The position numbers were made by a program, and so were the translations under genes. Positions 3,201-30,200 of a DNA stretch of 64,000 nucleotides are shown piece after piece. Source of the stretch: Bispira polyomma (lineage: Eukaryota). Every line of letters begins with the position of its first letter. Within the stretch, counting starts at the first letter, position 1. The notes below the pieces were generated by a model. That model worked only from the letters and a program-made list of their open reading frames with translations. It was not told where the DNA came from and did no database searches. Location of the stretch: NCBI GenBank assembly GCA_965649765.1, contig OZ287756.1, positions 56,234,001 through 56,298,000 of the forward strand, read 5' to 3'.

Positions 3201-6200
3201 TTATCAGAACCATGTTAGAAGAGACAGCAATATTTTGTTCAGATAATAAAATAGTTTCATAAAATAGAGAAGAAGACATTTTAGTATAATATATAAACAA
3301 TAGGAAACTCTAAATTTGGGAGAGTGAAATTGAGTTCATAAAAAATCAAAAACCTTTGGATAACTGAAGTTTTTGGCTAAAAATCAAGGTTTTAATGTAA
3401 TTGCAGAAGCACCAGTGTTTATAAATTTGCAAATTTTAGGTGAGCCAGGTATCTTTACAGAGTTGCTAGCCCATCTTGCTAGTAAATAAACTAAGATAAA
3501 TATTAAAAAAAATAAGACGATTGATATTTCAAAACAAATGTTTCTTACTTTATTTATTTACAAAAAATGCTTGATTTTATTAAAAAATTTAGAATTGCTT
3601 GCTTTACTGTTTAAATCTCTTTTGGTCTTTCTACTGTAGATAGTAGTCCATGTAGTTTCATCTATGAATATCAGTATAGAATATTGATTTTTTGCAGACT
3701 ACTGGACAGAGAACTTTCGGCTTGGGCTTGTAACTTTTAAGAGTTACCAGCCCGCTGGACATGTCAGTTTCACTGTGATAGTTTTCAAAGACTGTAATGT
3801 AACAGAGGCTGTTCATACCTGCCAGTTCTCTCTAATGTTGAGTCCCCATGGCCCTCACCCTCGGGTCCCCCGCCCCCATTTCCTCCCCCTCCGTCTGCGG
3901 CATCTTTCTCGCCCCCAGCCCCACCCTTCTCGTCCCCACCCCCGGTCCCGTTAGGCATGGTGTTGAGGTTCTCCGGCACCGTCGGCATCTTCTTGCGGCC
4001 CTCCTGCGAGGGGACGCTCTTGGGCGGCTCAATCCGGATGTTTGGGTCCCACTCTCCAGGTGGTAGCACCGTCACCTGATCCAGGAACTCGTCAATACCC
4101 ACCAGCAGGTCGTCACGCTTACGTGCCTTGTAGGCGATTTCATGGAACACCTAACAGTAGAGACAGAAAGTGTATGATATGGGACAGGAGGTAACCAACG
4201 AGAGTTATTTCACACAAAGTGAGAAATATTAAACCTTCAATTTAGCCGGGTTGATTGCTTCCAACCAATCAATCAATGCCTTACATATTATTTCCAACAT
4301 AGCAGCAATATCTGGCAGCACCTGACAATATTAAGCTGACACCCCTAAGTTTGGCCGGGTCGATTGCTTCCAACCAATCTATAAGATTTCCTAAGTTCCA
4401 ACATGGCAGCGCTTTCCAAAATGGCTGCGCACTTAAAAAGGGGCTCAGCCACTAAAATTGGTCCTAAACACTTCTGTTTAGTATTTATCATTGACAAGTA
4501 TTGTGTTAAATAATATGGCGGCTTTCTGAAACAAAATTATTAAGATAAAAAAATACCCAGATCTTCTAATATATTTTGAAATTATTATTCAAGCATGAAA
4601 ACTTAAAGTTAATGCTATTACTGCGCGAAAATGCATCTGTATAAGGTATTTTGTGAATGTTAAGCATTATGTGAGCGAATAACTATTACTTTCAAGGAAT
4701 TGAGTTGGAAATATGGACCCACCCACCACACCCATCCATAGACATATCCACACAGATACCTGGTCAGACATCGATGTAGCTATATCTGCCAATCTCGTAG
4801 TATCTGGTATATTTCCTTATTTATGTCACAAACAGCCACCCACTCACGCACACGCACACAACCACCCACCCACACAAAAACACCCCCTAGCCCCACCCAC
4901 CTCATCAGACATCAGTGTAGCTTTAGACCTGCCAATCTTGTGGTACCTTTCCTTATGTCTGGATACAAACACAACCACTTACACACACATACACACAGCC
5001 ACACACATACCCACACATACACAGCCACCCACACAACCACCCACGCACACACCCACCCACCTCATCAGACATCAGTGTAGCAATAGACCTGCCAATCTCG
5101 TGGTACCTCTCCTTATGTCCATGTGGCCCCAGTAAGATGAACAGGAAGCGTGTTGGTATGGGCACCTCTGTGAGGTCACCCAGGTGTGCCGACTTCTTGA
5201 GGCGGATAAAGCCCATGAGGGGCTGTTCCAGGAAGTCCACCTCCCCTACCATAATGTTAGAGGCCTCGGCTCCTGGGGGGAGCTTCTTGAAGAAGTGCTC
5301 ATTGAACTGGAAGTAAAATAAACAAAAATAAACACACATTAAAACAAGGTTGAGTTATTAATTTATTCAATAGTAACATCACTAATTAGAAGTGCAATGA
5401 GTAGTCGGTTAATCCCTCTAACCGAGCGGTTTGGCATGTGGCCTGACTCAGAAACAGGAAATGGATTACTCGCTAAGTTTACTTTTGACACACATACAAT
5501 ACATTAAACCATACATAAACATAAAATTATATATAACTAGACCTAGCGCATCGGAGAATGGATGCATATTTGTATCCACCAGAAGGACAAAGCACCCTAG
5601 GTAGAAAGCACCTTAGGTAGCAAGAACCCTAGCTAGCAACCAAGCTAGGAGCCAAGCTAGGAGCCTATGATTTCCCATTTATGCTAAAGCCTTAAATCGC
5701 ACAAGTGCAAAAATGTGGAACCAATAAGTATAAGATAGGCACTTTAAAGTTTGGCCTACCCATTTGACCTTGCACAAGGGATCCAAGGTCAAATTTGACT
5801 ACAGCAAAAGATTAGCCACCCATGATTTCCTATAGGTTGGTTTCACATCCCAAACCTTAATATTTTAATTTTTTGTGGTGATAGGGGTATTTCCTAGTAT
5901 ATTACCTTGTGCGTTGAGGGTACCCGACTCAAGTCACTGCCTTCTGTATCGACTGGAGAGAGGTGAGGGGCTGAAGCTTTTCTGTTAAAGGACGGGATTC
6001 CCTTCAGCCCTTCTATAAACCATAGCAACACAAAAAACACATGTCTCACACAGACAATATAATAAAAAAAATTTCATCTTTCAGTATGGCCGGCAGTAGT
6101 TAAGTAGCACCTTGCAATCAAGAGCTTTACAAAATCTATTGCATGTGAATCATGTGTCGCTGCATAAAAGTAGCTTTAACTACATCGAAAAATTTTTATA

Positions 6201-9200
6201 ATTATAAATTTATGTTTTAAAAACCAAAAGCGAGTGACACATAAATGAACTATTCAATTTATTTACATGTATTAATTAAAATTCAATAGTACATGTGGAA
6301 TATATAAATTACCAGGTATTCTCATAATTTAATAAAGATTTATAATGTTGCATTAGTTTACATTTGAGGTACTGTTACTTGTTTTAAGTGTATTGAGCAA
6401 GTCTTAGAAAGTCGAGTAATTTTAAACCATCACACCAACATTTAGTTCAGTTCACCCACGCAAAAGTAATATTGCAGTATATCAATGACAAAAAGTAGCA
6501 ATTTAAGACAGACAGACAGACAGACAATATATCATATAGACATCATCATTACAAAACGATACAGCGGAACTCCTTTAAGTTGAATCTCAAGAGACCATGA
6601 AAAATACAATGAAAAACATTTTTTGTCGGACAAAAGGTGCCGTATTCACAGTCTTAAAGTCTCAACTTTGTCCTAATTAACTTAACATTAATGATATTTA
6701 ATACTGCATACCGTTTGTTTTAGTGTTAAGAGCAAAGTTAACACAGAGCAAAGATCCATACTTACTGTCACACTGGAACCAAGACCAAAATCTTGACCTT
6801 AAGTAGGCCAAAATCTTAAGATTAAGTCAAGACTAAAGCCTTTTATGAATACGGCCACAGATTTTATCCACATGAAAGGCAAACTGGCTTAACAATTTAA
6901 AAGTTCTACTTAAAGACTGAATATATATCAACACATTCAAAGCCAATATGTCAATGCACGACTCCTGGAAAAATAAAAGGATATAGAAAGTTTTTAAATA
7001 AAAACACACGTCTGCACACCATACTGAAATACTGAATGTGAGAAAAAGTACCTGGCATATAAAGAAAAAAGGTACTCGCGTCAAGAAATACACAAAACAT
7101 AAAACCTCCAAAAATATGTTGTTGAAACCAATTATCTGGAAAAAAACGTTGAAAAATTGTTTGTCACTTGACAGCAAAACGTCATTGAGTACTAGTGGGT
7201 AAATCGCTCAATATATGTCACAAGATATTGAGGCAAAATGCTTTTAAATATTAGCATATATCTAAATGACTAATAAAGAAATCGGAACATTCTATTTTGT
7301 CATTACAACAAAAATCGGCGGGAATGACAAAAGGAAATTAAAACCGGTAATTTCTTTCAATGTGGATTTGGAACTTTTTTTAAAAAAAAGACAGCCTTAT
7401 CAAGCTTTATATGATGATGGTAAACTAGGCAATTTCAATAATATTATACCAATATTATGCACATGTTATACACATCAATATCGGTGCCCACGAACTCAAA
7501 ACAATAAATTTTGAATTGTCCATATATATCGATAAACAATTTACCCACTTAAGGAAATACACAAAAAAAAATATTCACAGCAAAAAGGTCAGAAAATCAC
7601 TTGACACAAGGCGTCAGTAACCATTAGTGGATTGGAAAATCTTTGTCAAGGGAACTTTGATCTGCAGTTGGCTGGCTTCTGATTGGCTAACATGGGGTGC
7701 AGGGTATTTGGGCCTTATAAAGTTAATGAATGGACTGCTTTAATCATAAATGGACTGCATGTACTGATAACCACAGGAAGACTACTGAGTATATTGATTA
7801 TAGAGGTGGGTACTTGAGGTACTGGTATAATAATTTACAGGCGAGGAGGGGTACTTTGGCTACTTTAAATGTCTGGGTATATCAATTAGAGTGCAGGGTA
7901 CCTTTATTGGTTACTCTGGGTATAACAATCAATTTGAGGGGTACTATTTGAGGTACTACTTACTATGAATGTGATTACTCTTGAAATATATGATGGTCGT
8001 ACCCCTTTTCAGTCTAATAAAAATCTGTTGTACATCTTTTATATCATAGCAGTTTCTGTTTCGGAATTTTTATGTATAAATTATCTTAATTATGATGTTA
8101 AAAACGTTTAGATCAGAAATTAAAATGGACCGGATTTTGGAAGATTGACTATATATATCATTCACAAAGGGGGTACCTTGGGTGGGTATATGAATCACCT
8201 TTGTGTACCTTGGGTGGGTATATGAATAACCTTTGTGTACCTTGGGTGGATATATGAATCACACAGTTGGTACCTAGTTTTATCAGGCACAGGACTTTCT
8301 TTTATTTCAATACAATGCATATTACACCACTTTTACACCACAAATTACAAAAATATACTCCCAGTATCCTAACAGTACAATATTGGCTTCTTAAGACATT
8401 GCGAACACCGTGCGACATAGAACATTATGGTAGCATACCCCTATCTTTTCACTGATACACACACTCTCCTGGTCCCCAAAGTACTTGTTTACAAAGTAGC
8501 TGGTACCCAAAGTACTTTTGTACAAAGTACATTTAACCCCAAAGTACTTGTTTACAAATTACATTTAACCCTAAAGTATTTGTTTACAAAATAATTACAA
8601 CCCTAATGTACTTGTTTACAAAGTACCTGATATCCAAAAGTATTTGGTTAAAAAAGTACCTTTACCCCCAGAGTAACTTGTTTACAAAGTACCTTTAACT
8701 ACAACTTACTTGTTACCTCAGCCCTAGACTCAATAAATTAAGTTTTCAATTCAAGAGTAGCCGGGTACCTTCTATTACGACACCAACTTAGATGGATTCC
8801 ATCACAACCAAACCCCTCTCAACCCCCCACCCCAACTTCTCCATCCACACAGACAGTTGCCCCTGTCTCCCCGCATCTACTCACAGTTATGGTGTTTTAA
8901 TGGCTGATCAAAGCCCAGCGTTTGTCTTGTACAATGAAGGGAGCCACAGACACAAAATGTCAACCCATAAAAATGGAGCTTTTGAGATACGGAAACCCTA
9001 CAGCCTTTGGGTGAAATCAGACCAACTTCTTCAGTCTCAGAGTTTTTTTGAGAACTCAGTAAGCTCAGACAAATTTTAGCTGCTTAAACGACTGCCCGTC
9101 TCGAGCACCTGCCCATACGGACGACTATTATGAAAACAATATTGCTTTGCCTTACAATACAAAGGCTTTTGCATGATAAAAAAACTGTTAATGGTCTTAA

Positions 9201-12200
9201 CTACTTAGCCAAAGAAAGCAGCACAGCGTTCCATCACATTGACACACACAAAGATACACAGAAAACAATAGCTTTACCTGTAAGACGTCTAAAAACACCT
9301 TGTGAAAAAACCACCTAGGAGATTGTGGTACTTAGTGTAACTTAGTGACACCCAACTTAGCCTGTTGTTATAACTCAAAATTAACCCTTAGCCAGCTAAC
9401 CCCTAATTCCTAACATTTGACACTTATAACATTTGTTTTGTCCTAGTCCTGAACCCCATTCTTTTGGAAGAGGAATCCTGTCCCCGAGCATGACAGTACC
9501 ACTAACTAAACGTAACAATATGTCTCCAATGGGGACGTGGAGGGCTGTAGTCCCAAAATAAGAAATTTGTACACAACCAGCTAGACTTAATTCAGTCTTC
9601 TTATTGAGGACACAATTTTAGATGATGTCATTTTATAAAGTCATCTGACGTAAAAAAAGGAAGGGTTTTTTTTGCTTCAGACAATGCATCTTGATTCTCA
9701 GCACACAAAATTCAACTACAGCAGAACCCTCATTATTCCAAATACAATATATTCCATTATTATGGACATACTTTCATCCTCCCACTTTTTCTAGGGCTGG
9801 GAAGAGTGGTAATTTTTGCACTCGAGTACTCTTTCACCATTTTACTTTCCTCTTCAACAAGTACTTTTTTTTAGCGATAAAAGATACAAAATGGCTCACT
9901 TTCCATTGAAATATATCAGAAATTGACTTATTGTCATCTGTATGCAAATATATACAAAAATATATTAATATTTACCCGGGAAGGAGTACTCTTTCCTCCA
10001 TTTTGCACTCTTAAAATATTCATTAGATACTCCATTCTTTAACGAGTACTCGAGTATTCTTTAACAGCCTTAAATTTTCTTCCCTAAATTCTTCTTTTAT
10101 ACTATTATAATATTACCTCTTGCAAATTTACCTGCAAAAAAATCACCTTTTATTACATCCGAATAGAATTTTTCTCTCTCTCAACATGTACGAATAATAG
10201 AGGTTCTACTCAATCTACTGTTTTATATATATTAAATCAGAGGTCCAATTTTCTTTGCTCACTGTAAGCCCCAGTCCCCCCCTCCCCCTTAACCACCACA
10301 ACCACCTTACATAGTTTATCTTGTGAGTGAATCTTTGTAAACCCCCCACAACCTATCATTATATCATCATGGAGGACACATAACATGGAAATATATGCTA
10401 TTAGGAGGTTATTATTAAGCAAAGGTTTGCGGAGGGTTTTTAAATTAAAAAAAAAAAAAAAAAAATAGGGAATGAAAGTAGGCGGCAAACCCAAAGCATG
10501 CGGCGTGGATTTCCTCCGTTTGTACTCAGCAGATGGACTGGTGAAATCTAGAAAAATAGGAAGGTAAAACCATACAGCTTTAACAACACCTGAGCAGCAT
10601 TATGGTACACTAACTAGTTCAATTATTTTTTTAAACAGTTTTTTTAATTTAAATATGTATCACTCATACTACACCAATTTAAATTAATATTAGTTGTTCT
10701 TGAACAGAAAACACCAATTTGTATCAAAAACACTGGCTTTTGGCTTTAATTTAATATAAACATTAAAAAATATGTAACAATCGTTAAATACAAAAAAACT
10801 ATATAAACATTCTGTCTTTTTGAGTTTAATAATGAAAAAGATTTCTTGGAGCCTAAGTGACCCCAAGAAGATAAAAAGCACAGTACTCGCCCTACTGGGC
10901 TCATATTACAAAGTTGATCTTCTTTCATCATATAATTTTTTTATTACACACTACTTGGATAGTTTTACTATTATATATTGTTAGCCCAAACAACCAGTCC
11001 TATCATGAGTTACAGAGTTATAGCAACCTCTAAAACACCACAGTGACCTTGTGAAGGTCACAGATTAATTGCCACCTGAGATAATTTAGTCAGTTTTTAC
11101 TTGCCACGCAAACACAAATCACCACCTAAAACTTTGTCGCCTGTATTAATCTAATTAATAATAATACTGTGCATAAAAGTTGAGATTTCAGTTGGAATGC
11201 AATGTCACTAAATTTACACAGCCAGGCATTTTGAAGGCAAAGATTCACTGCAATGAATATGCATCCTAAGTGGCCAACTGAGTGTATTTTAAGACATGTA
11301 TACTCATTTTAAATTTTCACACTAGATAATTTAAAGATTTTCACAAAGGAAAGTTCACTTCAATTCCAGCAAATTTATCCTCAAAATTTAAATAGCCAAA
11401 AAAATGTCCCCTTGCACTGAAATAACTATTTAATTACTATAATTCAAGTACAGATACACCAGGGCTAGTATTCACAAACTTAAGATTCTAAAATCTTTAG
11501 TCTCTATCAATTTCATTGGCTGAAAATAGTGTTTCAAATGAAAACATTTCTAAGAATTGCATTTTAATAATGTTTGTGAATATGTCCCCAAAACCTCCAT
11601 TATTATTCAAACTTCTTTGACCTGAATATTTCTTTTCGGGTACATATATGCTCTTTTATTACCAAAATTATATTGTGCTGTATGTTTTTTTTAAAATAGA
11701 GTATAAAATGTTGTTTTTTTTTATATTATTATAAGAATAAAGTCTCACTGCAAAGAGGTTTTGAAATAATAGAGGTTTTACTGTGTTTTATGCAAACATA
11801 TCAATGCATGTATAAATAGGCAATGTAGTTAAATATGAGAAGAACTAAACTGCAAATAAATATATATACCAAAAATCCATCCGTTATACAAGCCACTTAG
11901 CAGAATTTTTTTTTTCAAACAGAGCATGTTATAAAAAAGATAAACTGCCCAATATAGGAAGCAAAACCAAACAAACAAGTACAAGTCAGCTGGTCAATGT
12001 CCCTAGAGTAGAAGCTATAAATGTAGCACAGTGAAACAAGCACAGGAATGCCAGAATGGGCATTACTCTCAGCCCCCTCCTAAAATGCGAAACACAAGAA
12101 ATATACAGAAAGCGATCCTTGATCAAGTATGATGGATAACTGATATTTCTTTTTTCTTTTTTTTGACCATCAACATATCAGTGTTGTACAATACCATATG

Positions 12201-15200
12201 GGTCAGTATACTAAGCCCTGTAGAGATAGCTAAATGGAATTCCAGGTGATATCTTTTTGAAGTGAAAATTTACTTTGATGACCTCTGTTTTTGATCAATT
12301 TAACCCAAGGCTCAAAACAAGTGGAAAAGTTAGTAGATAAAAAGACAACTATAAGAATTGTCCATTTTTATCTTCTTCAGAGAGGTAATTAGTGTTGTGT
12401 TATTATTGTTGATGGTTGTGGTTAAACAAACAATCCTAATAATTTCTGTATCCTAATAAATCACTTGACACAGGATAAACATCAAAATCCATATTAGGAG
12501 TTATTTCAAGAAAAGACCATATTGGGACATACCAAGATACTTTTTTTACTCAAACAGAAAGCAATTAATTTGTGCATAGATACGTACATGCTACACAACA
12601 ATTTTGGTGGCCAAAGAGCCCAATCAATAAATACTGTCAGTATCAATGAACAATTTACCCAGTAATTCTTATGTCTATTTTGATGAAAAACTTTTATTTG
12701 AAAGATTTTTGCAGATGTAGAATCCTCAGTAAATTGATATAGAGTTAAGACGACCTTGAAACCACAGAAATTTGTCAGAAACAATCATTGTAAAAATGCA
12801 CAAATAGGCAAGAATTATCCACGCATATATATTACCAACTATCATCAATGAGAAATACTTGTAAGAGTTCCGCAGAGTTCCACCTCTCGGTATTATAGTT
12901 GTTAAGCAGGGTTATTATCTCAGCTTGATACCATATCAGAAGCGAACAGAAATTTTATTACCTCCCCATGACACCATATCAGAAGCTATCAGAACCGTTA
13001 ATATCTCTCCATGACACCATATCAGAAACTATCAGAAATGTTATTATCTCACCATGACACCATATCAAAAGCTATCAGAAACGTTAATATCTCTCCATGA
13101 CACCATATTAGAAACTATCTGAAAAGTTATTATCTCACGATTACACCATATCAGAAACATTATTATCTCATCTTGCCACCATATCAGAAGCTATCAGAAA
13201 CGTTATTATCTCACCATGACACCATATCAGAAACTATCAGAAAAGGGTTATGATGTTTGAATAGGAAAGAAACTCTCCGCACAACCCAAGTATAAATGAA
13301 TCCAGGGGCCGTATTCACCAGGAAACTCAAGCTCTTGAACTCAACTCCAATGATCGCTAGCTGTTAATTCACAGTACATGGAAATAACCTACACTTCTAA
13401 CAATGCATTTTAATACAAGCCTTCAGCGCTGAATTCAAATATGTCTCCACAATTTACCTACTATAGGTTTTATTCTGGCAAGAGATATGTGTACTGTTGA
13501 AATAGACAGTACTTAAACAGTGCCTTGGATTTGAGCTTGAGATTTTTCAGGAATACGACCACCCCAGAAGTATATAATGTAGAAGCTAAAAACTTAAGAG
13601 AAGAGAATATTTAGTACAGCAGAACCTTTTTTTACGGACATCTTGGGAGAGTGAGAATTTGTTTGGATAACAGAATGTCCGTAGAAAATAGAAGTGGCAT
13701 TTTAGTATAAAACAATAGCAAAAAATAAGTTTGGGAGACTGAAATTGAGTTTATAAAATCAAATATTCAGATAATAGAGTTTCTACTGTACACATGACAG
13801 ATTTGATATACATGTATGTATATATATGGGAGAGTAAAGAGTGAGCGTTAATGTCAAAAGCAATACAGGAGAGTTAACTTAAGGCTGTAAATCAGACCGT
13901 GTGAGAGGGCGTGGGGGGTGGACATTCTTCTGGAGTAGTTCATCATGCCATCTGGAACAGAAAACGGTATACGTATGTCAGAAGGGTGGTTGTACACGTA
14001 AACAACAACAGGCGTAAGTACACATAACGAGTTATTGCAATAATAGTGTATACACTATTTACTACATAGAATATTCATTATATGACAAAACTGCGTATTA
14101 TATTCATAACCATACAGTGAAACTTGCATATAAACATAAAGATCAGCCAAGGGAACCCTCCACAGTGGTCATTAAACTAGACTCCTTGCATATATGTCAC
14201 AAAACAAGGTCATATTAGTTTCTAGCAGTCCTGAGAGACAACAGTATTCTGAAGAATAACTTCTGATTAACAGCAATGTCAAGGTAATTGCCTGAAAACA
14301 ATTACCTATATTAACTGTCTTCATTGTTAACACGGTATATGTAAATTATGTGCGTAATCGGGTACATTATTAAAGCAGCATTTTGAGCATCATGGCTGAA
14401 GGCAATTAGTCCAGGCCATTCTAGGTTTTAAAATTGGCTGCCAGGTGTTTAATTAAATATAAACAGTGGCTGCTGTTTATATTTTTGTGGTGAAAGCAGA
14501 TAGTGCAAATCGCCTTCAACGCACAATTACCTCCACAGCTTCTAAAATCTCTGAAAACAAAATCCCAAACATGCTCAAAAGAACTTTTGGTTGGCTTGGC
14601 TCTCTCACTGAAACTGTATCTATATCAATATAACAAAGTTACAACAACCATTCTGTTACAGTTGAAGAAAACTATTATATATAACGTACATGCACACACT
14701 AAAAGAACAAACAACCAACTTTATACACTGAAGCCAGGAATTCATCTGTCATCCACTATATACATATACTGAATCAGTCTAAAAGAAAAAAAAGAATTCA
14801 GAGAAAAACGATGCACAGGCATACAGCATGCAAAGATCATTATGAAGTACACGAACATAAAGAAGTCATGTAGAACTGAAGAGTTGTCTTTGAAAACTTA
14901 AGCTGAAATCTAAGCTATCTACCCTATCTCTGGTTAGAGGGACGTGAAGTAACATCTGACTGCATATTTGGGAGTCCCTTTTATATAGCCTTCAACTGAG
15001 TTGAGTCAGTAGCTTACATATTATTAATAGCAGACAGCTCTTATAATAATGGTGCAATACAGTATAATACGTCATAACTTATTATATGTATATCATACGT
15101 CATAATACGTCATACTTATGTATATTTATATTACATTTGGAAATCAAACCTAAAAATCATAATCATTCCTATTGGTACAGCTTTAAACATTTCAACATCC

Positions 15201-18200
15201 ACCAAATTTAGCAAAGGTTTTTTTAATGTAACTAGTAGGATAAGGTTAAATATGAAGAGGCTTTTTTTCAAGATGGACGCCAAAAACAGACGCATTCCAA
15301 AAAATTGTATCATACTCTTTTAAATACCCCAACAAGAATTAGGCCAATAAGACTCCATGTTAAAAAGGTGCCATGACCAAAATATGGTTGATGTTGCATC
15401 AAAACTGTAGCCTGTACAGTGTTGAAAAGAGGGTGCTGACGACAGCAACGGCATATTCAGGCGTAATCCAAAATCATAATATACATGAAGATTTCTTGTG
15501 ATTATTATGGCGGTTGGACCACGGGTAGACTTTTGAGAATATGACACACAAACGCGATGAATCATGCAGACTTAACACAACTGGATCAAAGCAAAACAAC
15601 ATCCACAGTCAGACTTCGAGTATGAAAGAAAACGGTCACCCGTCCACAAACACTGTTCTGTAACATTATATATAGGCTTTAAAAGAACAGACTCTCCAAC
15701 AGGAAACTGATGCAAACTTAGCACAAAAAAAGGCATGCAATTAATATGGCAGAACTTATAAACATTACCAAGGTTTTGTTAAAGAAACTCAACCAGATAG
15801 CTTAGAAATTTCACTTCATCCTTGTATACCCCTTGCCAATTTGTGACATGCACCCTCTGAGCGGGCAGAACAATGCAAAGCTGCAATATTTAGTACCTGC
15901 TCAAAACTGGTCTACAATTGCACCCAAAATGAGCTTTCTCCAGTCAAGAGAAAGTCAAGACTTTCGCAAAACATCCTTGGCAACTCACATGCCAGCCCAT
16001 AACTCAAGGCAAACAAAACTTGACATAGTGCACCTTCTTAATATGGTGTTAAATATGAAATCAGCTTGGCCGTTGGGGTGATACAAAAGGAGGAAGCTAA
16101 ATGTGCTTAAGGCTTTAGTGATGTAAACACAAAAAACGATCGCCGCTAAACCACGTTGTGAAGGAATCACTGTCTAGAAACATACACTACATTGTTATAA
16201 AGGCCTCAAAGTCAATTTTTAAATACGATTTTTGCTTTATGAGTTGTGAAAATGATAGAGGACAGATTAAATAACAATTCAAGCTGAATTTTATAAATTT
16301 TAACACTGATTTTAACAATTTATCAGCAGCAAATACTATGTATAAGAAGGTGTAAAATTGTAACAAAAACATCAATATTTGTCCAAGTACACCCTCCACA
16401 AACGTGACACAATACACATACCAAGAAGGTATTAATACTGAAATATTGTACATGACTAGAAAAAGGAAAACATTAGCAATATTTTGAATGAATTCGTTTT
16501 TTCATGAAAGTACAAAAACGGGGATAAATAGAAAAAACATTAAAGTTACACTCTTCTGAACAGAACGATACTTTGTATTCTTCGTTTAAAAAACATAAGG
16601 AAACATATTTAAAAATGTAATTCATTCAAAACAATATACACGTTCTATAAAGTTGTGTAGTATATATAATATGTTTATATATGCTGGATCAATACTCGTA
16701 TTGTGTCACAATAGACGGGGCTCTCTGCGAGAATTGTCTACAAATATGACGTTCTACCACAGATTTCAAATCGTGTGACGTCACAATACAAGAATCGTTA
16801 TACGGCTTTTTTATTAACTATGCAATAAAATAATGAAGTTTTAAATAGTATTTGAATATAAAAATATGTAAAACGATCATTAAATAACCATTTTATGACT
16901 GCTGTAGTAGGTATATGTGCTAAAGTTACAATTCATAAATGCAATATGATTTATCGGCAACGTGTTTGTGTGTTTACGTTACTAAAGCCTTAATTAATTA
17001 ACTAATGCCATAACACAGGGAACGCTTAATAAAACATGGCTGCCTCAGCAAAACACTAATCTTATATATCTTAATGCTTAAGTAAAAACGATCATATCTA
17101 TGATGGAGTAGCAGTAAACAACAATTGTAACCACGGCAACACGTCACCTTTTCTTTTTTTAAAAAAAACAAAACAATTAAACGAGGAAGAAAGGGGAAAA
17201 AAAACCTGCAAGCATACAAGACAGACAACATGGAAAACCTGGGAAACTGTCACCAAGACGCTTGTCCGAGGGGTGATGGGCCCCGTGGTTGCCATGGTGA
17301 CCACCGTGGTGGTGGTGGTTGTTATGGTGGTTGCCATGGTCATTGCTGCCATGAGAGGATGTGAAGCTGTGGCCCTCTGGTGAGTGAGAGACAGACAAAC
17401 AGAAAGAGTTTACAAAGTCAACATAATGTGTGTCTGTTTATGGTCATTTTAGGGGGTTTGGTTTAAAGGGGGTTTGGTTTAAAGGGGGTTTGGTTTAAAG
17501 GAAAAAGAAAAAGGTAGCGAAATCTAAATGTTGCTTCCAATTAGTATCATTATTATCACATGAATTTAGTTTGGGGTTTACGTGGTTTTTAACAGCTTTG
17601 ATCATTTCAAGACAGTCAGATTTAATTTTAATGGTGGAAGAAACCAGTGGTGAAGCACTGTAGACTACTGACCTACAGCAAGTACCTCACAAACTATAGT
17701 ACATGAAGGAATGAACAGGATTCGAACCCACATTGGTGAGAGGCCAATGATTGTGAGGCAGGCACTTCTAAACACTAGGCCATTCAATGAGATTCCTAAT
17801 ATTGCACTAAAGTCATAAAACTAGCTAAATTTCTGCTCAAATGAAATAATTATACAGCGCTCTGCTAACGTATGATCCTCTCACTTAAAAGCACTTTTCT
17901 GTTCAGAAGGGATATCAAGATCATTTAGATCTCAACCCTCTAGTTTCCAAAGAACTTGTACAAAAAAATCTTGCATAGCCAACTGTAAGTAATGATATTG
18001 TCAATTTTTCAGACATGAACACAATGTATAATGATGGTTGAGTTTATACTCTTGATCAGCAATAAAACAAGGGCTATTCATTTTAACTAAAGTGTGTCTA
18101 TAAGTATGCACATTTACACATTTACAATGATTTGCTAGCTAAAAAACCACTCTGTCCTTTGTAATAGGTACCATTAGTAAAACCAAAGCATCACACAATG

Positions 18201-21200
18201 AGGCAGAAAATCAGTCTGGGGGGCAAGGTCAGAGGAGTAAACCTGTAAAGTTAAAGACTTTGAAATGACTGACACTCAGTATTCTACAAGTCATAATGTG
18301 CCAATGTACATCATGTAGAATCAATATACCATGTGGATGGTGTGGAGCTAATAAAAAAATAATTAAAAATTACCTGGCGAGACATTGTCGGGATGTTTAT
18401 AATACACGTTTGGGATCAATAATTGATATGCCCAACATACTCTCATTCAGAGTGTGCCTAAAAGAGTGAGGATGACTATTAAAACGTTTACTCTGTTATG
18501 TACATATCTATAATTATATTGATATGCAAGGTGTGTTTCAAAGGGTTGTTGGTGTCTTACATAGGTCACTGTTCTTGGTTAATCGATGGAAACTAGAGGG
18601 TAAATTGTTTGGGTTGATGTACATCGATATCGAACATAAAATTACTTCAATATCTGCCGACAATGGGACAGAGCAAGAAATTTGTGAAGAAACTAGAACA
18701 AATCTAAAAAAAAAAAACTTATCTAATTAAAACCGAAAGTGAGAAACCGCTAAATATGTTTACAAATAGGCATTGTCATAAAATGGTTATAATTCATTGA
18801 TTAAAAGCTATCAACCTTACAATATGATTATAATTGTTGTAAAAATGTTACCCCAAGGAGAAATATGTGTCATTTATGATATCGATGTGTTGGCATTTCA
18901 CCTCCATATCGGAAGACAGAAGCCCAAACAATAAATATTGCCGATATCGATAAACAACTAGAAAACGGCTTTTGATAACAAAAACGAAGCGTCGCTAAAG
19001 TTGAAATAATAATGAAATTGTTTAGTGTACAAGGTTTGATATTGTTTAAAAGTTGACACATAAGGAGTACTTTTGGTCAATGTAAGCTCGAAAAGGATCA
19101 CCATTTCCGAGATAACAGACGTTTTCTAAAAAGACGCAGAAATTGAAGATGGTTGCCCAAATCAAAAATTACTATAAAAATTTACATAAAAGAAAAATCA
19201 GCCCTATGAGTCGAAAAGGAGCTTGAAATCGCTCTATCTAGCACCGTTTCTGAGATAAAGGACATTTTCGAAAAAGACGCAGAAATTCAAGATGGCCGCC
19301 AAAATGTAACATTTTTTTAAAAGTTTAAATATAAGCAAAATCAACCCCGTTGATTGAAAATGAGCTCAAAATCGGTCTATCTAGCACCGTTTCCAAGATA
19401 AATGACATTTTCGAAAAAGACGCAGAAATTCAAGATGGCCGACAAAATTAAAATTTTTTTGAAAGATTACATATAAGTAAAATCAACCCTGTGGATCAAA
19501 AATGAGCTCGAAATCGCTCTATCTAGCACCGTTTCCGAGATAACTGACATTTTCAAAAAAGACGCAGAAATGCAAGATGGCTGCCAAAATTGAAATTTTT
19601 TTAAAAGTTTACATATAAGCAAAATCAACCCTGTGGATCGAAAATGAGCTCGAAATCGTTCTATCTAGCACCGTTTCCGAGATAACTGACATTTTCAAAA
19701 AAAACGCAGAAATTCAAGATGGCCGACAAAATTGAAATTTTTTTAAAAGTTCATGTATAAGCAAAATCAACCCTGTGGGTCGAAAATGAGCTCGAAATCG
19801 CTCTATCTAGCACCGTTTCCGAGTTAACGGACATTTTCGGAAAAGACGCAGAAATTCAAGATGGCCGTCAAAATTGAAATTTTTTGAAAGATTACATATA
19901 AGTAAAATCAACCCTGTGGATCGAAAATGAGCTCGAAATCGCTCTATCTAGCACCGTTTCCGAGATAACTGACATTTTCAAAAAAAACGCAGAAATTCAA
20001 GATGGCCGACAAAATTGAAATTTTTTTAAAAGTTTACATATAAGCAAAATCAACCCTGTGGGTCAAAAATTAGCTCGAAATCGCTCTATCTAGCACCGTT
20101 TCCGAGATAACGGACGTTCTCGAAAAAGACGCAGAAATTCAAGATGGCCGCCAAAATTGAAAATTTTTTAAAAGTTTATGTATAAGCAAAATCAACCCTG
20201 TGGTTCGAAAATGAGCTCGAAATCGCTCTATCTAGCACCGTTTTCGAGATAACGGACATTTAAAAAAAAACCTTAATTTTTAAAATTTTTGAAATTAAAA
20301 TCGTTTTATATCAGTTAACGATCGCATATTTTTGGATGGGGTAAAAAATAAATAAAAATTCAAGCTATTCTTTAAAAGTTACGCGCTGCATGTACTGGTC
20401 TAAAATTAAAAATAAAAAAAATCCTCACACGCTCAAAAAAGCACCCATCAACACATTTTTTTCCCCATTTTGTATGATTGAACGAGCCTGTCAATCAGTC
20501 AATTATCACCAGATTGATCTAAAAATTTACGGACATCTATGCTTTAGTATTTGCAATGTGCATGCGAAATTTCATTGAACTATGACAAGTACTTCAAAAG
20601 AAAAGTTGATAAAAGTGCAAGATAGAGCAAAATAGAGCAAAATACTCATTTGAAGTACTCAGTACTCATTGAGTACTGGACTTAGAACTGTGAAATTTTT
20701 ACATCATACATAAAATCAAAAAGTAGATGAATAACTTATACCAAGAAAAAGCCGAAATCCCAATAGTTTCCGAGATAGCAAAAAAGTACCGATTTTTCGC
20801 ATTTCAATAAAAATCAATCGGTTGGCAATCAGTCAATTGTCATCCGATTAATCTCATCAGTGTCTCCCGTCCTGAAAATTACCTTACCAAGGTACAAACC
20901 AAATTTCATTAACCTATGATGAATACTTTTTGAGAAAACCTAGTGACAAGCACTTTTACACCCCCCAGGGTCAACTGACATTTAAGTAGGCCAAAGTTCA
21001 AAGCCAAGAATATGAAAAAAATTTCCCACTCCTGGTTAAGAGAACTGCCAAAAATAATTTTGATGCAGATAATATTGAAGGAGATATTCAAGGAAGACCA
21101 TGCGGCGGCGGCGAGGAAACCAGGGGTGAAACCAAATAAGCGCCCTTTTCAAGGGACGCTTAATTAACCCACTAATGGAAACATTGGGCTTTAAAAGGTG

Positions 21201-24200
21201 AATAATGTGACATTATTTTCTGAAGTTACGACTCCATATTTTTCTTAAACACAAGCATTTTATTTGTGGCAAAAGTAATTGACTGCGGTATAATTTGTGC
21301 CACCAACGTCATACTTTACGTGATCATCACAGCCAACACACATCATACATGTAATTTGACAGATTTCTGACGTCAATTTTCTCGCTCAAAGCCATTGCCC
21401 ATGGCACAGGTAACAGCTATTAATAGCTATATACCATTATTGTTTAACATGGCAATTATCCAACGACACAGCATATATTATATGAAATTCTGGAATATAA
21501 TATTTTTAAAAATCGCAATCTATTTACCAAATATTATATACTTTGGTACAAAAAAAAAACAACACTTCAAATTATTCCAAATTGGAATTACTTTAATATA
21601 TTAAGCAGAACATTTTTTCTAATACATATTATTTTACCATGGAAACTATATTACCCTGAATGCTACCAAAAATTTTTTTTAATTTGTCATATTTTTTAAC
21701 ATTACAATCTCTATTACCCAAACCAAACAATAAATTTGTTGAAAGAATCCATGTAAATCTTCTCATTTCAAATTTCCTCCAAAATTCAATCTTCTGTCTG
21801 CCTTTATAGTCTAAATGTTCACTAAGTCTTATCTTTAAACAATAACATCTAAATGGTTTGGATAATCGAGGTGTCATTACAGTATAGAAAATCTTTACCT
21901 AAACAAAAAACACATAACAATAAACAACAGTACATTATAGGAAATCTTGACCTACAAACAGTGAAAAAACATGCAGTTATAAACAGTGACACATATTTAG
22001 TATAAATTAATGGTTAGCATTACTGACTGATGAACCATATGACACACTTAATTTGTTTTAGAAAATTGTGACACTTGTGTATGGTGGACACAGCCAATCT
22101 TTTTCACAAATTGATGAAGCGGCAGTATATTGCCCGTACTAAAGGAGTTACAGGTTACATTATAGCTGGGATTACTGAAACACACACCACAGTCGACTCT
22201 TGGAATGTCACAACTTACAGCCTCTATGATTTAATTTCTGCAATAAGTGCACAATCTGCCTCAAAATATGCACGAGCAAGTGAAAGCCGAAGTCGGTGAA
22301 CACATCTTCCGTGAAATGGTTAATGTAAAAACACTGTTACATCCATACACAACAATGTAATTAAGTCAGTTATGATTAGATATATAATATCATTGACAAT
22401 GTTATTAGCCTAAAAATAATTGAACTGTGATAGATAACTTACATCTCGATAAAAATGATGCTCATAAAATTCCAAAAAATACTCCCCCTACAAAAAAATA
22501 CAAAAACAAAATGTTTCTGTGGTCTTTACTCGGGAGTTGTAACTGGACTCGTTTAATACACATATTTCATTTAACTACGTAGACTTTACCTACTAAATAG
22601 CAGATATGATAGAACATAGGACATAGGTGCACACTATGTATATCAACAAAATATGTTGCTTGGCAGGTGCTGAAGTTACCAAAAGCTGAGAACACTTTGA
22701 AGTTAAAACTTACGACAACAATTTGACATATATGACAGTGGGTAAATTGTTTATTCATATATTGGACTCCTCCGACGGGTTTTTAGATTGGTTTAAAACT
22801 TTTATTTGTTCAATATTTTACCTTGTGGCAGCACTTACAAGTACACAAACCATTTTAAATAGCATATGAATACCTTTCCTCAAAACAATATACTTCTAAA
22901 CACTTTAAGTGGTTCAGACTTTTTAATTAATGCTTGGGTAGATTTCACATGTTGAAACAAAAATGTTTTATTATTTTCTTGGTAGTTGGACTGATTTTAT
23001 AATCATTCAATAATGGCGATAATGATGCCCTCGATATCTCAATCTTGTGACACATAAACAATTTACCCACAAATGAACTTGAATTAAACACGTCGTCGGA
23101 AGAGTTCTCTGTGTTAATATGTACGTGTGTAACACAAATGTCAGTAATAGGTCAGTTATAAGCAAGTGTATTTCCGTTAATTACAAGAAGCTACCAAAAT
23201 ATTAACTAAATAAAGACAACATGTATTAAAACTGTGCCTGGGTGCCAAATTCTCCCAGAATTTTTATTTATTTGGGTTTTTATGTCACTTTTGGTCATAT
23301 TGTGACAGCCAGGTTTATTGTTGGGACGAAACCCAGTACTACTTGTACTGTAAACCACCCACCTGCAGCAAGTGTTACCTCGGGACTTACCTCTGCCAAA
23401 TGAAGGAAGCAGGTGGGAGTTCCAATCTACTGTACTCTGAGGGGTGAGAGGCTGTGTAGTGATACTAAAGCAAATGCTTGCAAAAACACTGTAGGCCAGC
23501 ATGTTATTGCATTTTATTAGATGACGACGCGTGTCACACACATAATAGACACATTTTATTACACACATGTACATATAACACATACAGAACTCTCTGGACC
23601 TTCAGAACAACAACATATTAAAAGGAACTAAAAGTAAGAACTTGATGATTAGATCAGAGATGTGTTTGTAGATACAGAGCTTGTTGTTACCTTCGTATTT
23701 TAACCTTTCCACTGGACCTAGAGATACAAGGAGAGGAACACAATGACTGGATGGCTGAAGGTGTGATTCTGTATTTGTATGTGTGCAGCTGAATATGTGT
23801 GTGTGTGTGGCTGAATTTTGTGTGGGGCTGAATTTAGTGTGTGGCTGACTTTTGTGTGACTGAATGTGTCTGGCTCAACGTATTTCTGTCACACTGAAGG
23901 TATGTGTCAGCAGCTGGATGCATGTGGCAATCAATAAGTTTAAAATATTTTTAATATGTTCATTTCTGAAGTAACTACTACAATTCCATAATGCAATACC
24001 GGTAGCGAATACCATTTTTTTTGCACTTTTTTTAACAAATGGCATAAAGCACGTTGATTAAAACTGTCTTTTATGGAACAAACATAAGATAAAACAACAA
24101 AAAGACTTTTGTAAAACAAAAATACAACATCACAGCGATTTGAAAAGATTTGTGAATGGAAGCCCCTCCAGAATACTCTAATCTCTGAAATTTGTAAATG

Positions 24201-27200
24201 AAAAACCAGTTCAACCAGTTTGTTTATCTAAATAAAACAAGTTACAACCTGTTAGCTGTCTTCCAAAACAGTTGTTGAAGAATTAATTTCTAAAGTTTGA
24301 CTAAATGTAACCATACAAAAATTTAAATGAAATTTTTATCTTTCTCAGCATTATTGCTCCTAACTCATTTCTGTGCCTTATTCTAGTTTTGTTTACTGTA
24401 TAAATTCCACATGTTAAAGGATCTACAAAACTTTGTTTTAATTTTCTTCCTAAAATTCTTGTCATTTTCTTTTTTAAAAACTAGTTAAAAACTTGTTGTC
24501 GGTTGGTTTTTGCTAAACCAACAACAATCATGGTTTAAGAAAATTCCAAAGTAACTGCAGCTCTAAAAATAATCTCACAACGATACATGTATATGTGTAA
24601 AAATGAATAAAAACAATACAACCCAACCACAACAACGGAAACATTTAAGTTAAACCACTGGTAACTATTGTAACTATTGCCAAACGAAAATCTACACCCA
24701 AACTTTGTGCCACCATACAAAAAGAGTACTGAGTTACTACACTGATGTTCGGGTCATAATTATTATACCGCTTTGTCGAATTTTTTTCTTCTCACACAAA
24801 ACATGGATATCAACTGTGTACTAACATAGATCCGAAAAAAAATAATAAATAAATAAATATAGATACTAGTACTATCTGCTGAAAAGAATCCAATATAACA
24901 TGTGTACCCACAGAAGAGAACTAGTACTTCTAATCTACATTCAAAAACATTTATAATTGTAGAATTGTCACGAGTTTCCCTGTCACCTGACACACATTAA
25001 ACCCATCACACAATTATTATACAACATCCTTACCTTTGGGTTCCAGTTGCTTGGAGGAGTGTCGTTTGCCAATATCTGCAAGGGAGCGCACCATCGACAT
25101 CCCTTTACCTGGAGAAATTTTTTTTAAAAAGACAAAAAGATCACTTAAAGAGTATGGGACTGTGTGTATTGCATGGGTGAGACAGGGCACTCTCTGGTAC
25201 TCAATAAGGAGCCCAATTTGTTGGGAAACCAAAGTGAAACTAGCGGGTACTCAAAAACGTACAGTTTTACAGTTAAAATCTCGACAACCATCTACCTGTA
25301 AAACAACCAGACAAAAACAACACTTGAAGAGTAGGGCTATGGCTGTGTATTGTGCTTGAAAATCTTATTGCGATATATTCCAGTTGCATTCGATATTCAG
25401 GTATTGCAATTTATTATCCACTCAGCCGTGAAATACAGCAATTTGGTGTGTAATACTTCAATGTGTTGTTGCACCCTTATTGAAGAGGTTTAAGCATCAA
25501 CCAGACTGAGGCTCTAAGAGTGATTCCCAAACTTTTCACTTTATTTTTCTGGATCATGGTAATTTCTTTTAATACTTTTTTTTGGGGTTGTAAAATTGAT
25601 GTAGCAAATGATGGCCAAGCAGGTAACACCCTTGCTTAGGAATACAGAGGACCTGGGTTTCAATCCCAGCCTTTGGGGAGTGACAGGTACAGGTAGATGT
25701 ATAGTGGCTCAGATGACCACTACAAAGTGGCAGAACTCTTGTGAATGGGTCCTATCACCAGTGGCAGGCTAAAGAACCTCGCATTGACATTGACATGAAT
25801 TCGAAAGTTGCGTCATTCACAAGCCTCTATCTTCAGTAAGAGGAATAATAACAGTTAGTGGTGTGAGTTTGCATGATTGACACTTTACAAGGGATTTAAT
25901 CCCATCCAAGTTGAGATCCTACCTCCAATACCTAACTACCAACTTGAATTTAATTAAGGGTTCTATGTCGCTTTCAAAAGCTTAGATCATATCAATGACA
26001 GCCATATTCAATGTTGGAAGAAACCAGTGCTAAAAAGCCATTGTAAACCAATGGCCTACAGCAAGTACCTGACAAACTTACCCACATAATATAGTAACAA
26101 AATGGATTCAAACCCACATTGCTGGGAGACGATAGTTATAATAAAGCAGGAGTTTCTAACCACTCGGTTACCACGGCCCCATACTATCCTTGAATTTCAA
26201 GCAGTATATATGAGTGTTTGGACATATTGTGTTTACCTTAAAAGTGATTTTCTAATTAAAAAAAAATAGTATAATACCTGTAAAATATTATTAAAAATTT
26301 TATATTGTGTAAGACAAAAAATTGTAGTTTTAAATGCTTTAAGAACATAAGCTATATGTGTATTACATCTCCTTAGGAGGATAATCCCGAGCTGAAGCAC
26401 GGTAAACCACAAACCTACAGTAAGCACCTGACAAACTTCCCCAATGAGGGAACGAATGTAATTCAAATCCACATTGGTGGGAGACCGGTGATTGTGAAGC
26501 AGGCGCTTTTAACCACTAGGTCAGTGCAACAGCCCCTAGCTATATCTATTTTACATCTCCTTTAAGAGGTTAATCCCCAGCAGGCCGATGTCCTAACACT
26601 GACCTTCTTTCTTCTGATGCTGATGTCTGTGTTTGGCCATTAACACGTCAAACGTCTGGTCTTTGTACTCAATGTTCAGGTGATTGCCAGCAATCATACA
26701 GTCCAGAACCATGTCTGCAAAAATAAAAATCAAGCCCAATATAAGACATAATACAGTGTCTGAACAAGGTATGTGTAAAAAAAACAGGTCACATACACTG
26801 GTGGCATAAGTATTGCAGTAATCGAAAACCGGGACGTAAAAACAGGAATGACATCCGGTATATTTTGTTTAATATCACAGTCTTCTGGTAAAACGTATAC
26901 CAGGTTTACATGAGTTATACCTTCCAACAGGAACTGACAGCTCAAAAACCTTTGAAACTCATAAACATTTGTTTCTTATAAGCGTAAGAATTAAATAAAA
27001 TTTTAATATTTTGATATGATAAGTGTAAAAAAAAGTAAAATATAAATATTTTGGAAGAATTCTAGTATTCCCCCTCACGTGTACGAATACATCTATTACC
27101 ATATAGGGATATTTAAATAACCCCCCTAAACCCAAACCCTCAGTTTAAGTGTAAAATATATTAAGGCTAAAGAAAGATGGCTCACTCCCCTAACCCTAAA

Positions 27201-30200
27201 AAAACACATTGCCTTCAACAATTATTTTCTTGGGGTACTACTTTTTAAAATAGTAGAAGTGAGGGGGGAATTCTAGACCTTAGCCAATATTTTTGCCAAC
27301 CATGCCTGAATGCACCGTACCTGAACACCATTAACAACACTAACACACACACTAGAGATGGGAGTCATATTCAAAATGATAATCGATCGGTGGGTAACAT
27401 ACGATCGAAAAATCAATTAATTGTATGACCTTGATTCAGGTGATGGCCATCAACTATATAGCGTCTGTTAGGGTGTCAGACAAGTTCATATTTATGCAAT
27501 GAAAAGAGACGTTTACACAGACAGACATTCACCAACCACTCACCGACTATAGTGTACAAGTCATTAGCCTCCATGTCTAACATGACTGTCCCCGACAGGA
27601 TGCCTTTCCTCAGTTCAAACAGCGAGTGCAGTGACAATGTGGCCACGTGGGGTTTAGACCAGCGCTCTCCACCTTCTTCCACATCTTCTTCAAACTTCAC
27701 CCACCTGACAGAGACAATTATAGTATAATGGCAGTCAGGGGTCGATGTTTCACAAAATATGGTGGTAGTCTGCAGACTACCTAATTTTTAGTTTTGGTAG
27801 TTTGGTCTACAAGTCTCTGTACAGGCCTCCTAAAATACCTCAACCTATATCTCACCCCTTACTCTCAGCAAGTCAATACCCGTCGTGGTAATCCTAACAA
27901 ATATATTTCTCAATGTTCCTACCTTTGATCGCAGCATAATAACACAGAACCAAATTCCATTTTAATCGTAGTTTGTCATGCACTGCACCTAAGTTATGGA
28001 ATGACTTACCACAAAATGTTAGATGCTGGCTTTCTCTTTCGAATTTTAGAAGTAAGCTTAAGACCCATCTCTATCAAAATGCTTATCCCTCCTGACACGG
28101 TCTTAGCATTACCGACTGTCTCCCTGGTAATTACCCCTTTTCCGTCCACCATAACATGATTACTGAAGAACGATTCTGATTTTTTTGCGCCTTAGAATCT
28201 ACTAGTTCAGAGATTAGATGCCATTACCGAATTGATTTGATTAGATTAGATTAGTCAAGACCAAAATTTGATGGTCAAGCTTAAATATAGTCAATTTGGC
28301 CATCAATACTTTTATTACGAGGATGAAACATATTTTGTACTTGTTATGACATTGTAATATACCTGCATCAGTAAAGGAGTAGAGTATTCAAGAGTTTTAT
28401 TGGGTTTAAAAAAATTTAGCATTAATGAGAGATTTCTGTTGTCTTTGCTTCTATGTAAACATCATATTTTCTATGTTATTTAAAGTGAAGGTAAAATTTT
28501 TGCCAATGAATTTTAAATTTAATGAAGCAGTCTGTCGGACTACAGTTTGCAAAGGTTTTGGTAGTCTGTTTCAATTTTTAGTCATCTGAAACTACCAGAC
28601 TACTGTATACATTGACCCTGATGAAGGTCGTACCACTTTCCAGGATTTTAAAAATGTTGTGTGTATATATACCACCGCTGTGCCTTGCTCCCACACTAGT
28701 TTTTGTTTTTACCTTGCTGTTTTTAGCCTTATTAATAGTATTTATCTATCACGGCTGTGCCACACTTAACTGACTGTGTGTGTTTTTATCTGGCTGTCTT
28801 TAGTAATACTCCCACATGTTTTTACCTGGCCATCTCCTTCCACTCCATGTACCACACTTAAGTGACTGTCAGTTTTTACCCCTATTAGTACCAGTGTTTA
28901 TCTATCACCCCTGTGCCACACTTAACTGACTGTGTGTTTTTACTTGTCAGTTTTCAGCCTTATTTTAAGTGTTTATCTATCACCCCTGTGCCATACTTAA
29001 GTGACTGTATGTGTTTTTACCTGTCATTTTTCAGCCTTATTAGTACCAGTGTTTATCTATCACCCCTGTGCCACACTTAAGTGACTGTATGTGTTTTTAC
29101 CTGTCAGTTTTAAGCCCTATTAGTACCAGTGTTTATCTATCACCCCTGTGCCACACTTAAGTGACTGTGTGTGTTTTTACCTGTCAGTTTTAAGCCCTAT
29201 TAGTACCAGTGTTTATCTATCACCCCTGTGCCACACTTAAGCGACTGTATGTGTTTTTACCTGTCATTTTTCAGCCTTATTAGTACCAGTGTTTATCTAT
29301 CACCCCTGTGCCACACTTAAGTGACTGTATGTGTTTTTACCTGTCAGTTTTAAGCCCTATTAGTACCAGTGTTTATCTATCACCCCTGTGCCACACTTAA
29401 CTGACTGTGTATGTTTTTACCTGTCAGTTTTAAGCCCTATTAGTACCAGTGTTTATCTATCACCCCTGTGCCACACTTAAGCGACTGTATGTGTTTTTAC
29501 CTGTCATTTTTCAGCCTTATTAGTACCAGTGTTTATCTATCACCCCTGTGCCACACTTAAGTGACTGTATGTGTTTTTACCTGTCAGTTTTAAGCCCTAT
29601 TAGTACCAGTGTTTATCTATCACCCCTGTGCCACACTTAACTGACTGTGTATGTTTTTACCTGTCAGTTTTAAGCCCTATTAGTACCAGTGTTTATCTAT
29701 CACCCCTGTGCCACACTTAACTGACTGTGTATGTTTTTACCTGGCCGTCTCCTTCCACTCCATGTCGTCCCCGTCAGTGCGGAGCTCTTCCATCTCACAG
29801 AACACATCGTGCGCCTGATGGTCGTCGTCCTCCTCCTCCTGGCCAAGGATGAAGGCCACGCGCTGGGACGGGGGGGTCGCTACAAGGGAAAGAGAGAGAG
29901 ATAAGATGTAAGTTAGAAACACAGCTAAAATACTGAGACACATTTCATGGTCCATAGCTATAAATACCATCTGTTGTGTTTTATCACTTTTTAATTATCG
30001 GAAAGACATTTAACTTCAAAATATATATTGTACAAAAATAGGAATCAGTTGGTCTTATTTATTAGACCTGATCGATCTAATTACCTTCTGTCAATCTACA
30101 TCCCAAACACATTGTCCGAATTCAATGAAACACCCTCAAATTAGAGACACATTTCGAGACCGGACCTAGTTATTTTGTGTAATTAACACCGCCTTTGTTA

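Follow-up and report, generated by a model that had tools for sequence, protein, structure and literature searches.

How many forms can a single gene give to one disordered loop of the transporter that it encodes? The question is raised by a 64,000-nt stretch of the Bispira polyomma genome (OZ287756.1, positions 56234001-56298000, in a 1.04-Gb assembly; hereafter the window), the minus strand of which carries the 5' half of a gene of the SLC4 family. Four candidate exons, A, C, D and E, lie in a 19-kb phase-1 intron of this gene, between conserved exons at 25034-25108 and 5906-6012. The intron falls in the variable loop of the N-terminal (Nt) domain, variable region 2 (Nt-VR2), between two conserved Nt regions. 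An initial annotation described a combinatorial array giving up to 16 loop isoforms. On balance it seems probable that two or three of the four segments act as optional cassettes altering the disordered loop, D having a counterpart in the protein of a relative and E being its likely duplicate. Further downstream the same gene contains three copies of an exon for a membrane helix, likely to be mutually exclusive.

Candidate exons in the variable loop

All four segments were located on the minus strand, with the lengths and donors first proposed for them (Table 1). Each is preceded by AG and followed by GT, has a length that is a multiple of three (3n), is open in phase 1 (phase 1-1) and ends in G. 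The joined model translates without a stop for 16 of the 16 subsets of A, C, D and E, which bears out the claim that any subset splices in frame with no stop at a junction. Sixteen is the number that the reading frame permits; far fewer isoforms are likely to matter. The three donors reported as weak are present: those of D and E score below all 20 donors of the gene model, whose own scores are inflated by the training of the donor matrix on them, and that of C scores 3.5 bits. The acceptors of C, D and E (8.9-9.2 bits) are close to the median of the model exons, and the three segments are 3 of the 9 GC-rich islands in the intron.

Contigs from three DNA runs (X1-X3) show no differences from the assembly at A, C and D, so the assembly is sound at these three. 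The runs behave as DNA, with no joint fitting a candidate intron among the matches listed, and probably represent the same animal as the assembly and hence no independent support.

The phase 1-1 symmetry and final G had been taken as a sign of combinatorial design. This symmetry is forced, and is no more than chance and selection would give. Because the host intron is of phase 1, any coding exon that can be skipped individually must be 1-1 and 3n; 17 of the 20 model exons of the gene also end in G, and a stop at a junction is possible only where a final T precedes C or exon 5906-6012. Look-alikes are frequent as well. With splice-site matrices trained on this gene (20 donors, 19 acceptors), the loop intron contains 31 pseudo-exons that are phase-1, open and 3n, with a donor at the level of E and an acceptor of at least 5 bits; the remaining 21 introns, which total 56.9 kb, have 20.4 such segments for every 19 kb, and 40 Markov simulations have 18.8. 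At a donor score of at least 3.4 bits the numbers are 11 in the loop intron and, per 19 kb, 4.3 in the other introns and 4.5 in the simulations. Among these 11 are C, D and A (the last with two acceptors), and also several sites that derive from repeats and two near 7010-7135 that are rich in AT. Since look-alikes are common by chance, each candidate needs its own evidence. Counts of splicing-factor motifs exceeded the 95th percentile only for YCAY upstream and TGT downstream of A (2 of 40 cells). Judged in this way, D is well supported, E is likely and C probable, and A is close to even.

Exon D and its putative duplicate

D is almost certainly a real coding exon, as indicated by comparison with the nearest protein found, a relative's 1187-aa protein (P0002). 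This protein comes from a 4380-base contig; 1187 residues on a contig of that size imply that its transcript is spliced. Between the segments corresponding to the two flanking exons it has an insert of 16 residues, nine consecutive ones of which are identical to D (9/9; 0 of 20000 shuffles). When the 16 possible models are scored against P0002, the one with D only is best (2602, compared with 2550 for none and 2574 for E).

E and D agree at 9 of 11 residues, a level reached in 0 of 20000 shuffles, and have the motif RRxSTPHAL in common; seven of the nine common residues use different codons. The pattern R[RK]xS[TA]P, sought in the three sense frames of the 19-kb intron, matches only D and E. 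Similarity of the two at the DNA level is at background (926 of 1893 random intron windows are equally high), and the case for duplication therefore rests on the peptide and the codon pattern. E is likely to have arisen long ago by tandem duplication of D, with the peptide preserved, and we regard it as likely a real exon.

Two exons of similar length with a common motif could instead form a mutually exclusive pair that swaps the context of the phospho-motif, C and A being optional or unused, with at most 8-12 isoforms. The single copy in P0002 fits such a pair, as does the presence of a duplicated-exon cluster in the membrane domain of the same gene. It is nevertheless distinctly improbable, since D and E are both 3n in the same phase, so that the frame allows double inclusion or skipping, and are 3350 bases apart. 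No constraint against double inclusion was found in frame, short intron or pairing: a search for complementary sequences around D/E and around the membrane-helix copies gave repeats and short hairpins only, with no convincing pair. In addition, 3n pairs in Caenorhabditis elegans are often plain tandem cassettes (PMC4165533).

Candidates C and A

C is probably a real exon. It has an acceptor of 9.1 bits and a GC content of 0.59, and its GC island begins exactly at the acceptor. In the His-rich frame the GC content by codon position is 0.68/0.40/0.70, compared with 0.54/0.38/0.68 for coding sequence (CDS). It is single-copy in the genome (one match) and matches no Pfam family. A few homologue loops contain His-rich stretches (P0042 has five His in 12 residues), without sequence alignable to C. 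The 138-nt form of C, proposed beside the 123-nt form, was rejected, as its second donor (gttttc, at 17239) scores only -2.3 bits.

For A, the chance of a real exon falls somewhat short of even. Its splice sites are good (donor 8.0 bits, acceptor 11.9 bits) and it is single-copy in the genome; its codon score is -1.1, and neither coding nor homology gives a signal for it. Equally strong site pairs, at a threshold chosen after A had been seen, occur in 2 of 40 simulated introns and once, in any phase, in the 56.9 kb of other introns. A 30-nt look-alike at 23363..23392 on the minus strand, 300 bases from A, scores as well as A. It was set aside as a pseudo-exon: it lies in an interspersed repeat, and 40 of the 40 scored from 444 candidates match.

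The proposal that the segments are real exons thus holds for D and probably for two or three of them, and lacks such support for A. That all four are real and independently regulated, with most of the 16 loop isoforms made, was the view of the initial annotation. The stop-free translation of every subset, four strong acceptors and the rarity in controls of site pairs as strong as those of A are in keeping with it, as are the fly genes, in which 10 of 16 combinations of four inserts occur among database isoforms. It seems very improbable all the same, given the lack of a coding or homology signal in A and of any homologue of A, C or E in the searches made.

Possible role of the loop exons

A disordered Nt-VR2 loop that is split by a phase-1 intron would tolerate any 3n exon. 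New loop exons may arise by local duplication, as proposed for D and E, or by exonization of low-complexity DNA, as could be the case for C. The sequence R-x-x-S-x-P-H-(A)-L is present in D, in E and in exon 5906-6012. The form found in D and E, R-R-x-S-T-P-H-A-L, fits a phospho-motif consensus of the protein kinase A (PKA) and 14-3-3 type. D and E would each add one site to that of exon 5906-6012, so that splicing would determine whether a loop carries one, two or three phospho-sites; with more than one, 14-3-3 could bind at two sites. C would contribute a cluster of histidines with the capacity to respond to pH or to bind zinc. Where weak donors are paired with normal acceptors, inclusion would depend on tissue or state.

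VR2 is unstructured in crystal structures (PMC5608694, PMC4664831), and the cassettes in VR2 of NBCn1 alter activity 3.8- to 11-fold or bind calcineurin (PMC4464172). 14-3-3 has a much higher affinity for a disordered chain with two binding sites than for a single site (PMC12017986). As a partner of this loop, 14-3-3 is put forward hypothetically. The looser patterns [ST]xP[NHQ][LMIF] or [ST]xPHxL occur in 9 of 28 non-redundant homologue loops, compared with 0.64 expected; the 28 were kept from 88 readable loops, the pattern was picked after looking, and the loops are related by descent.

Several observations weigh against optional cassettes of this kind. Only 4 of the 28 loops have RxxSxP in its strict form (1.1 expected), and no report of 14-3-3 binding to SLC4A7 was found among the matches listed or in the part available of bioRxiv 10.1101/2022.10.05.510992. 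P0002, one isoform from another species, has D included and not skipped. The donor of E, at -2.7 bits, is the weakest scored, and C is also open in phase 0, with about the same codon score. Neither the three protein searches nor the one search of representative sequences nor 80 related metagenome loci gave a homologue of A, C or E. With residues 185-300 of P0002 as query, 1 of 19 candidates of near length matched, P0002 itself; of 17 shorter ones, 1 matched, a fragment that stops at the upstream exon. Exon 26605-26712 as query among representative sequences yielded four proteins, none of which extends across the cassettes, and the 80 metagenome loci included no closely related one that carries A, C, D or E.

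A rival reading gives the loop a single form, with D constitutive and the other three segments either pseudo-exons or relics in decay. In its favour, the only relative's protein carries D alone, chance pseudo-exons number about 19 per 19 kb at the donor strength of E, the repeat-derived look-alike equals A in score, and parts of exon ends recur within introns of the gene, at 4901-4958 and beyond the window. A copy that had died would hardly be expected, however, to keep 9 of 11 residues of D with seven of nine codons changed, as E does; nor does such a loop account for the exact start of C at a strong acceptor with CDS-like GC periodicity, or for a donor of D weaker than all those of the model. 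A single form is therefore unlikely, and optional inclusion of two or three segments is the reading preferred here.

A triplet of exons for TM11

The three copies of a 73-nt exon that lie outside the window (Table 1) are in tandem, 7.6-12.2 kb beyond base 1 of the window and downstream in the same SLC4 gene. The exon follows transmembrane segment 10 (TM10) and intracellular loop 5 (IL5) and encodes TM11, as judged by alignment to NBCn1 with the helices of PMC13263692. There is no fourth copy between the neighbouring exons. The reading frame is kept in three of the eight subsets of copies, and these are exactly the three single inclusions. The proportion of synonymous differences (pS) between copies is 0.53-0.74 compared with 0.17 for non-synonymous differences (pN), in each of the three pairs (p 0.013, 0.002 and 0.0006 by a binomial test), and the introns flanking the copies are not alignable. 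Copy 2 is identical to P0002 at 24 of 24 residues; copies 1 and 3 were not seen in any protein examined. The triplet thus likely forms a cluster of mutually exclusive exons for the membrane domain, with the copies apparently under protein-level constraint.

This cluster is more unusual than the loop array and matters more, as it would provide natural variants of a core helix. According to the part available of a review of the SLC4 family, cassette epsilon of NBCe2 is alone in the family as an optional piece of the membrane domain. No report of mutually exclusive exons in SLC4 or Ndae1 was found among the matches listed. The term 'SLC4' does not occur in the main text of PMC8373072, nor 'abts' in that of PMC4165533, as far as these texts were available; their supplements may bear on this. 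Mutually exclusive exons are reported to be enriched in transporters and channels (PMC8373072). Exons 4a/b/c of SLC12A1 (NKCC2) are similar in being three homologous exons of which one is used at a time (PMC8373072). They differ from the present triplet in belonging to another family and in encoding another helix than SLC4 TM11. The exon 4 variants of NKCC2 differ in ion affinity. In SLC4, a 2026 review ties TM11 to the conformational change between outward and inward states (PMC13263692).

If both levels of diversity operated, the loop would carry one to three 14-3-3/PKA sites and an optional His sensor of pH or zinc, and one of three TM11 helices would be swapped into the membrane domain, giving at most 48 transporters. 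Such a scheme is improbable as a whole; were it true, the transporters would differ in both regulation and transport kinetics, and no membrane helix encoded by mutually exclusive exons would have been known before in the SLC4 family.

Comparison with known loop cassettes

The position of the array in the Nt loop of an SLC4 gene, where the vertebrate cassettes sit, is confirmed as VR2. Cassettes I, II and IV of NBCn1 (SLC4A7), cassette A of NBCn2 and cassette I of NBCe1 lie in Nt-VR2 (PMC4664831, PMC4464172). These share with the present array the family, the loop (from RSLADIG to the return of the conserved core) and the use of optional pieces, putative in the present case, that can be combined, and NBCn1 has SAPGNL at 381-387 in the loop, loosely resembling the motif described here. 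In contrast to the vertebrate cassettes, no calcineurin motif was noticed, two of the candidates look like duplicates of one another, and the present cassettes are candidates read from DNA. Unrelated sequence had been claimed. This is supported for C, which gave no match at E<=10 to solved vertebrate SLC4 chains; the flanking exon 5906-6010 gave none either. Each of the other three candidates by itself is shorter than this comparison requires.

A lineage-specific parallel to the vertebrates, as first suggested, is not upheld. In the flies Lucilia, Musca, Glossina, Episyrphus and Sarcophaga, this loop of Ndae1 also has four inserts, and of their 16 possible combinations 10 occur (22 isoforms picked from the 120 homologues listed, with one regular-expression miss; the isoforms are database gene models). 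The first residues of these inserts have A-initial codons and the last have G-initial codons, which fits a phase-1 array with a final G, and 3 of 3 readable arthropod genomic loci have a phase-1 donor at the loop. The fly genes are therefore similar in number of inserts, loop and phase-1 junction signature, and differ in that the insert sequences are unrelated to those found here. The arthropod donor is seven codons past IG, compared with 11 here, and homology of the introns is unprovable in a variable loop. Variable loop inserts are common among the 120 homologues listed, and loop-length variants with the same flanks also occur among copepods, chelicerates and other groups (database models). 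On the evidence of these gene models, the loop-cassette design is widespread and its sequences alone are lineage-specific. The loop array would be an annelid example of a pattern known from vertebrates and from fly gene models, in which this one disordered loop of SLC4 proteins repeatedly acquires optional exons of unrelated sequence. The duplicated phospho-motif gives it a small additional value, as a concrete handle on what loop cassettes do.

The host gene and other features of the region

Twelve exons of the gene lie inside the window and the rest in the 40 kb downstream, giving a model of 20 exons and 1087 residues with no stop; one small exon near the end, for which no donor was found, is omitted from it. 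Two window exons match the Pfam family Band_3_cyto (PF07565). P0002 is 81% identical to the 1087-residue model; against the window model its identity is 77% across 666 columns. It has a Band_3_cyto Nt domain and an HCO3_cotransp membrane domain, and scores 1086-1191 bits against NBCn1, NBCn2 and NBCe1 (1191 for NBCn1, 9ovr) compared with 598-713 against AE1-3 (713 for AE2). By similarity, the gene is a sodium-coupled bicarbonate transporter of SLC4, of the NDCBE/Ndae1/NBCn type. Literature look-ups turned up no earlier report on this gene.

In a quick IQ-TREE analysis of 26 proteins, the window model pairs with P0002 (SH-like approximate likelihood ratio test, SH-aLRT, 100), in a clade with Capitella (97) and Dimorphilus (98), and five molluscs stand apart. 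The gene therefore groups with annelids and not with molluscs, and mantle, which had been suggested as a tissue to sample, is probably wrong. Three more SLC4-like loci, with about 51% identity to exon 5061-5303, occur at G000:C11:38431448, C14:14229274 and C13:24107197.

Table 1. Exons and candidate exons of the SLC4 gene (window positions unless the contig is named)
Feature	Position	Strand	Length (nt)	Phase	Donor	Remarks
Constitutive exon	26604..26714	-	111	1-1		HRHQH motif of Nt domain at end; 66% identity to P0002 174-217
Upstream flanking exon	25034..25108	-	75	1-1		Last base G; RSLADIG segment; 74% identity to P0002 219-241
Candidate A	23691..23717	-	27	1-1	gtaaca	
Candidate C	17254..17376	-	123	1-1	gtgaca	His/Gly/Asn-rich
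Exon D	13898..13951	-	54	1-1	gtctga	RRMSTPHAL
Candidate E	10491..10547	-	57	1-1	gtttgc	RRKSTPHAL
Downstream flanking exon	5906..6012	-	107	1-0		Third related motif, RKASAPHL
Constitutive exon	5061..5306	-				Band_3_cyto resumes; PF07565, E 1.2e-37
TM11 exon, three copies	OZ287756.1 56226364-56226436, 56225180-56225252, 56221779-56221851	-	73 each	2-0		AG/GT

The loop intron also contains a tandem array of 8.2 units of 142 bases (19099-20261), adjoining a very high-copy repeat (20400-21280). The 3' end of exon 5061-5306, with its donor, recurs as intronic duplicates at 4901-4958 and at about 4760-4826; the first has AG and GT, is 58 nt long (not 3n) and is likely a pseudo-exon. A partial intronic duplicate of the exon after TM11 lies at about 56215487-56215546 of OZ287756.1. 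At 28866-29743 there is an 80-base tandem array of 11 units that starts at the donor of exon 29741-29879, with 11 donor-like CAG/GT copies that are possible decoys. Local duplication across exon-intron borders thus seems to be frequent in this gene.

Intron 2 holds a broken retrotransposon resembling a long interspersed nuclear element (LINE) at 34635-37198, on the plus strand and opposite to the gene, with an RVT_1 match at 36530-37198. The same intron has a 21-nt phase-1 candidate microexon at 47130-47150, for which the splice sites (acceptor 11.2 bits, donor 5.5 bits) are the sole support.

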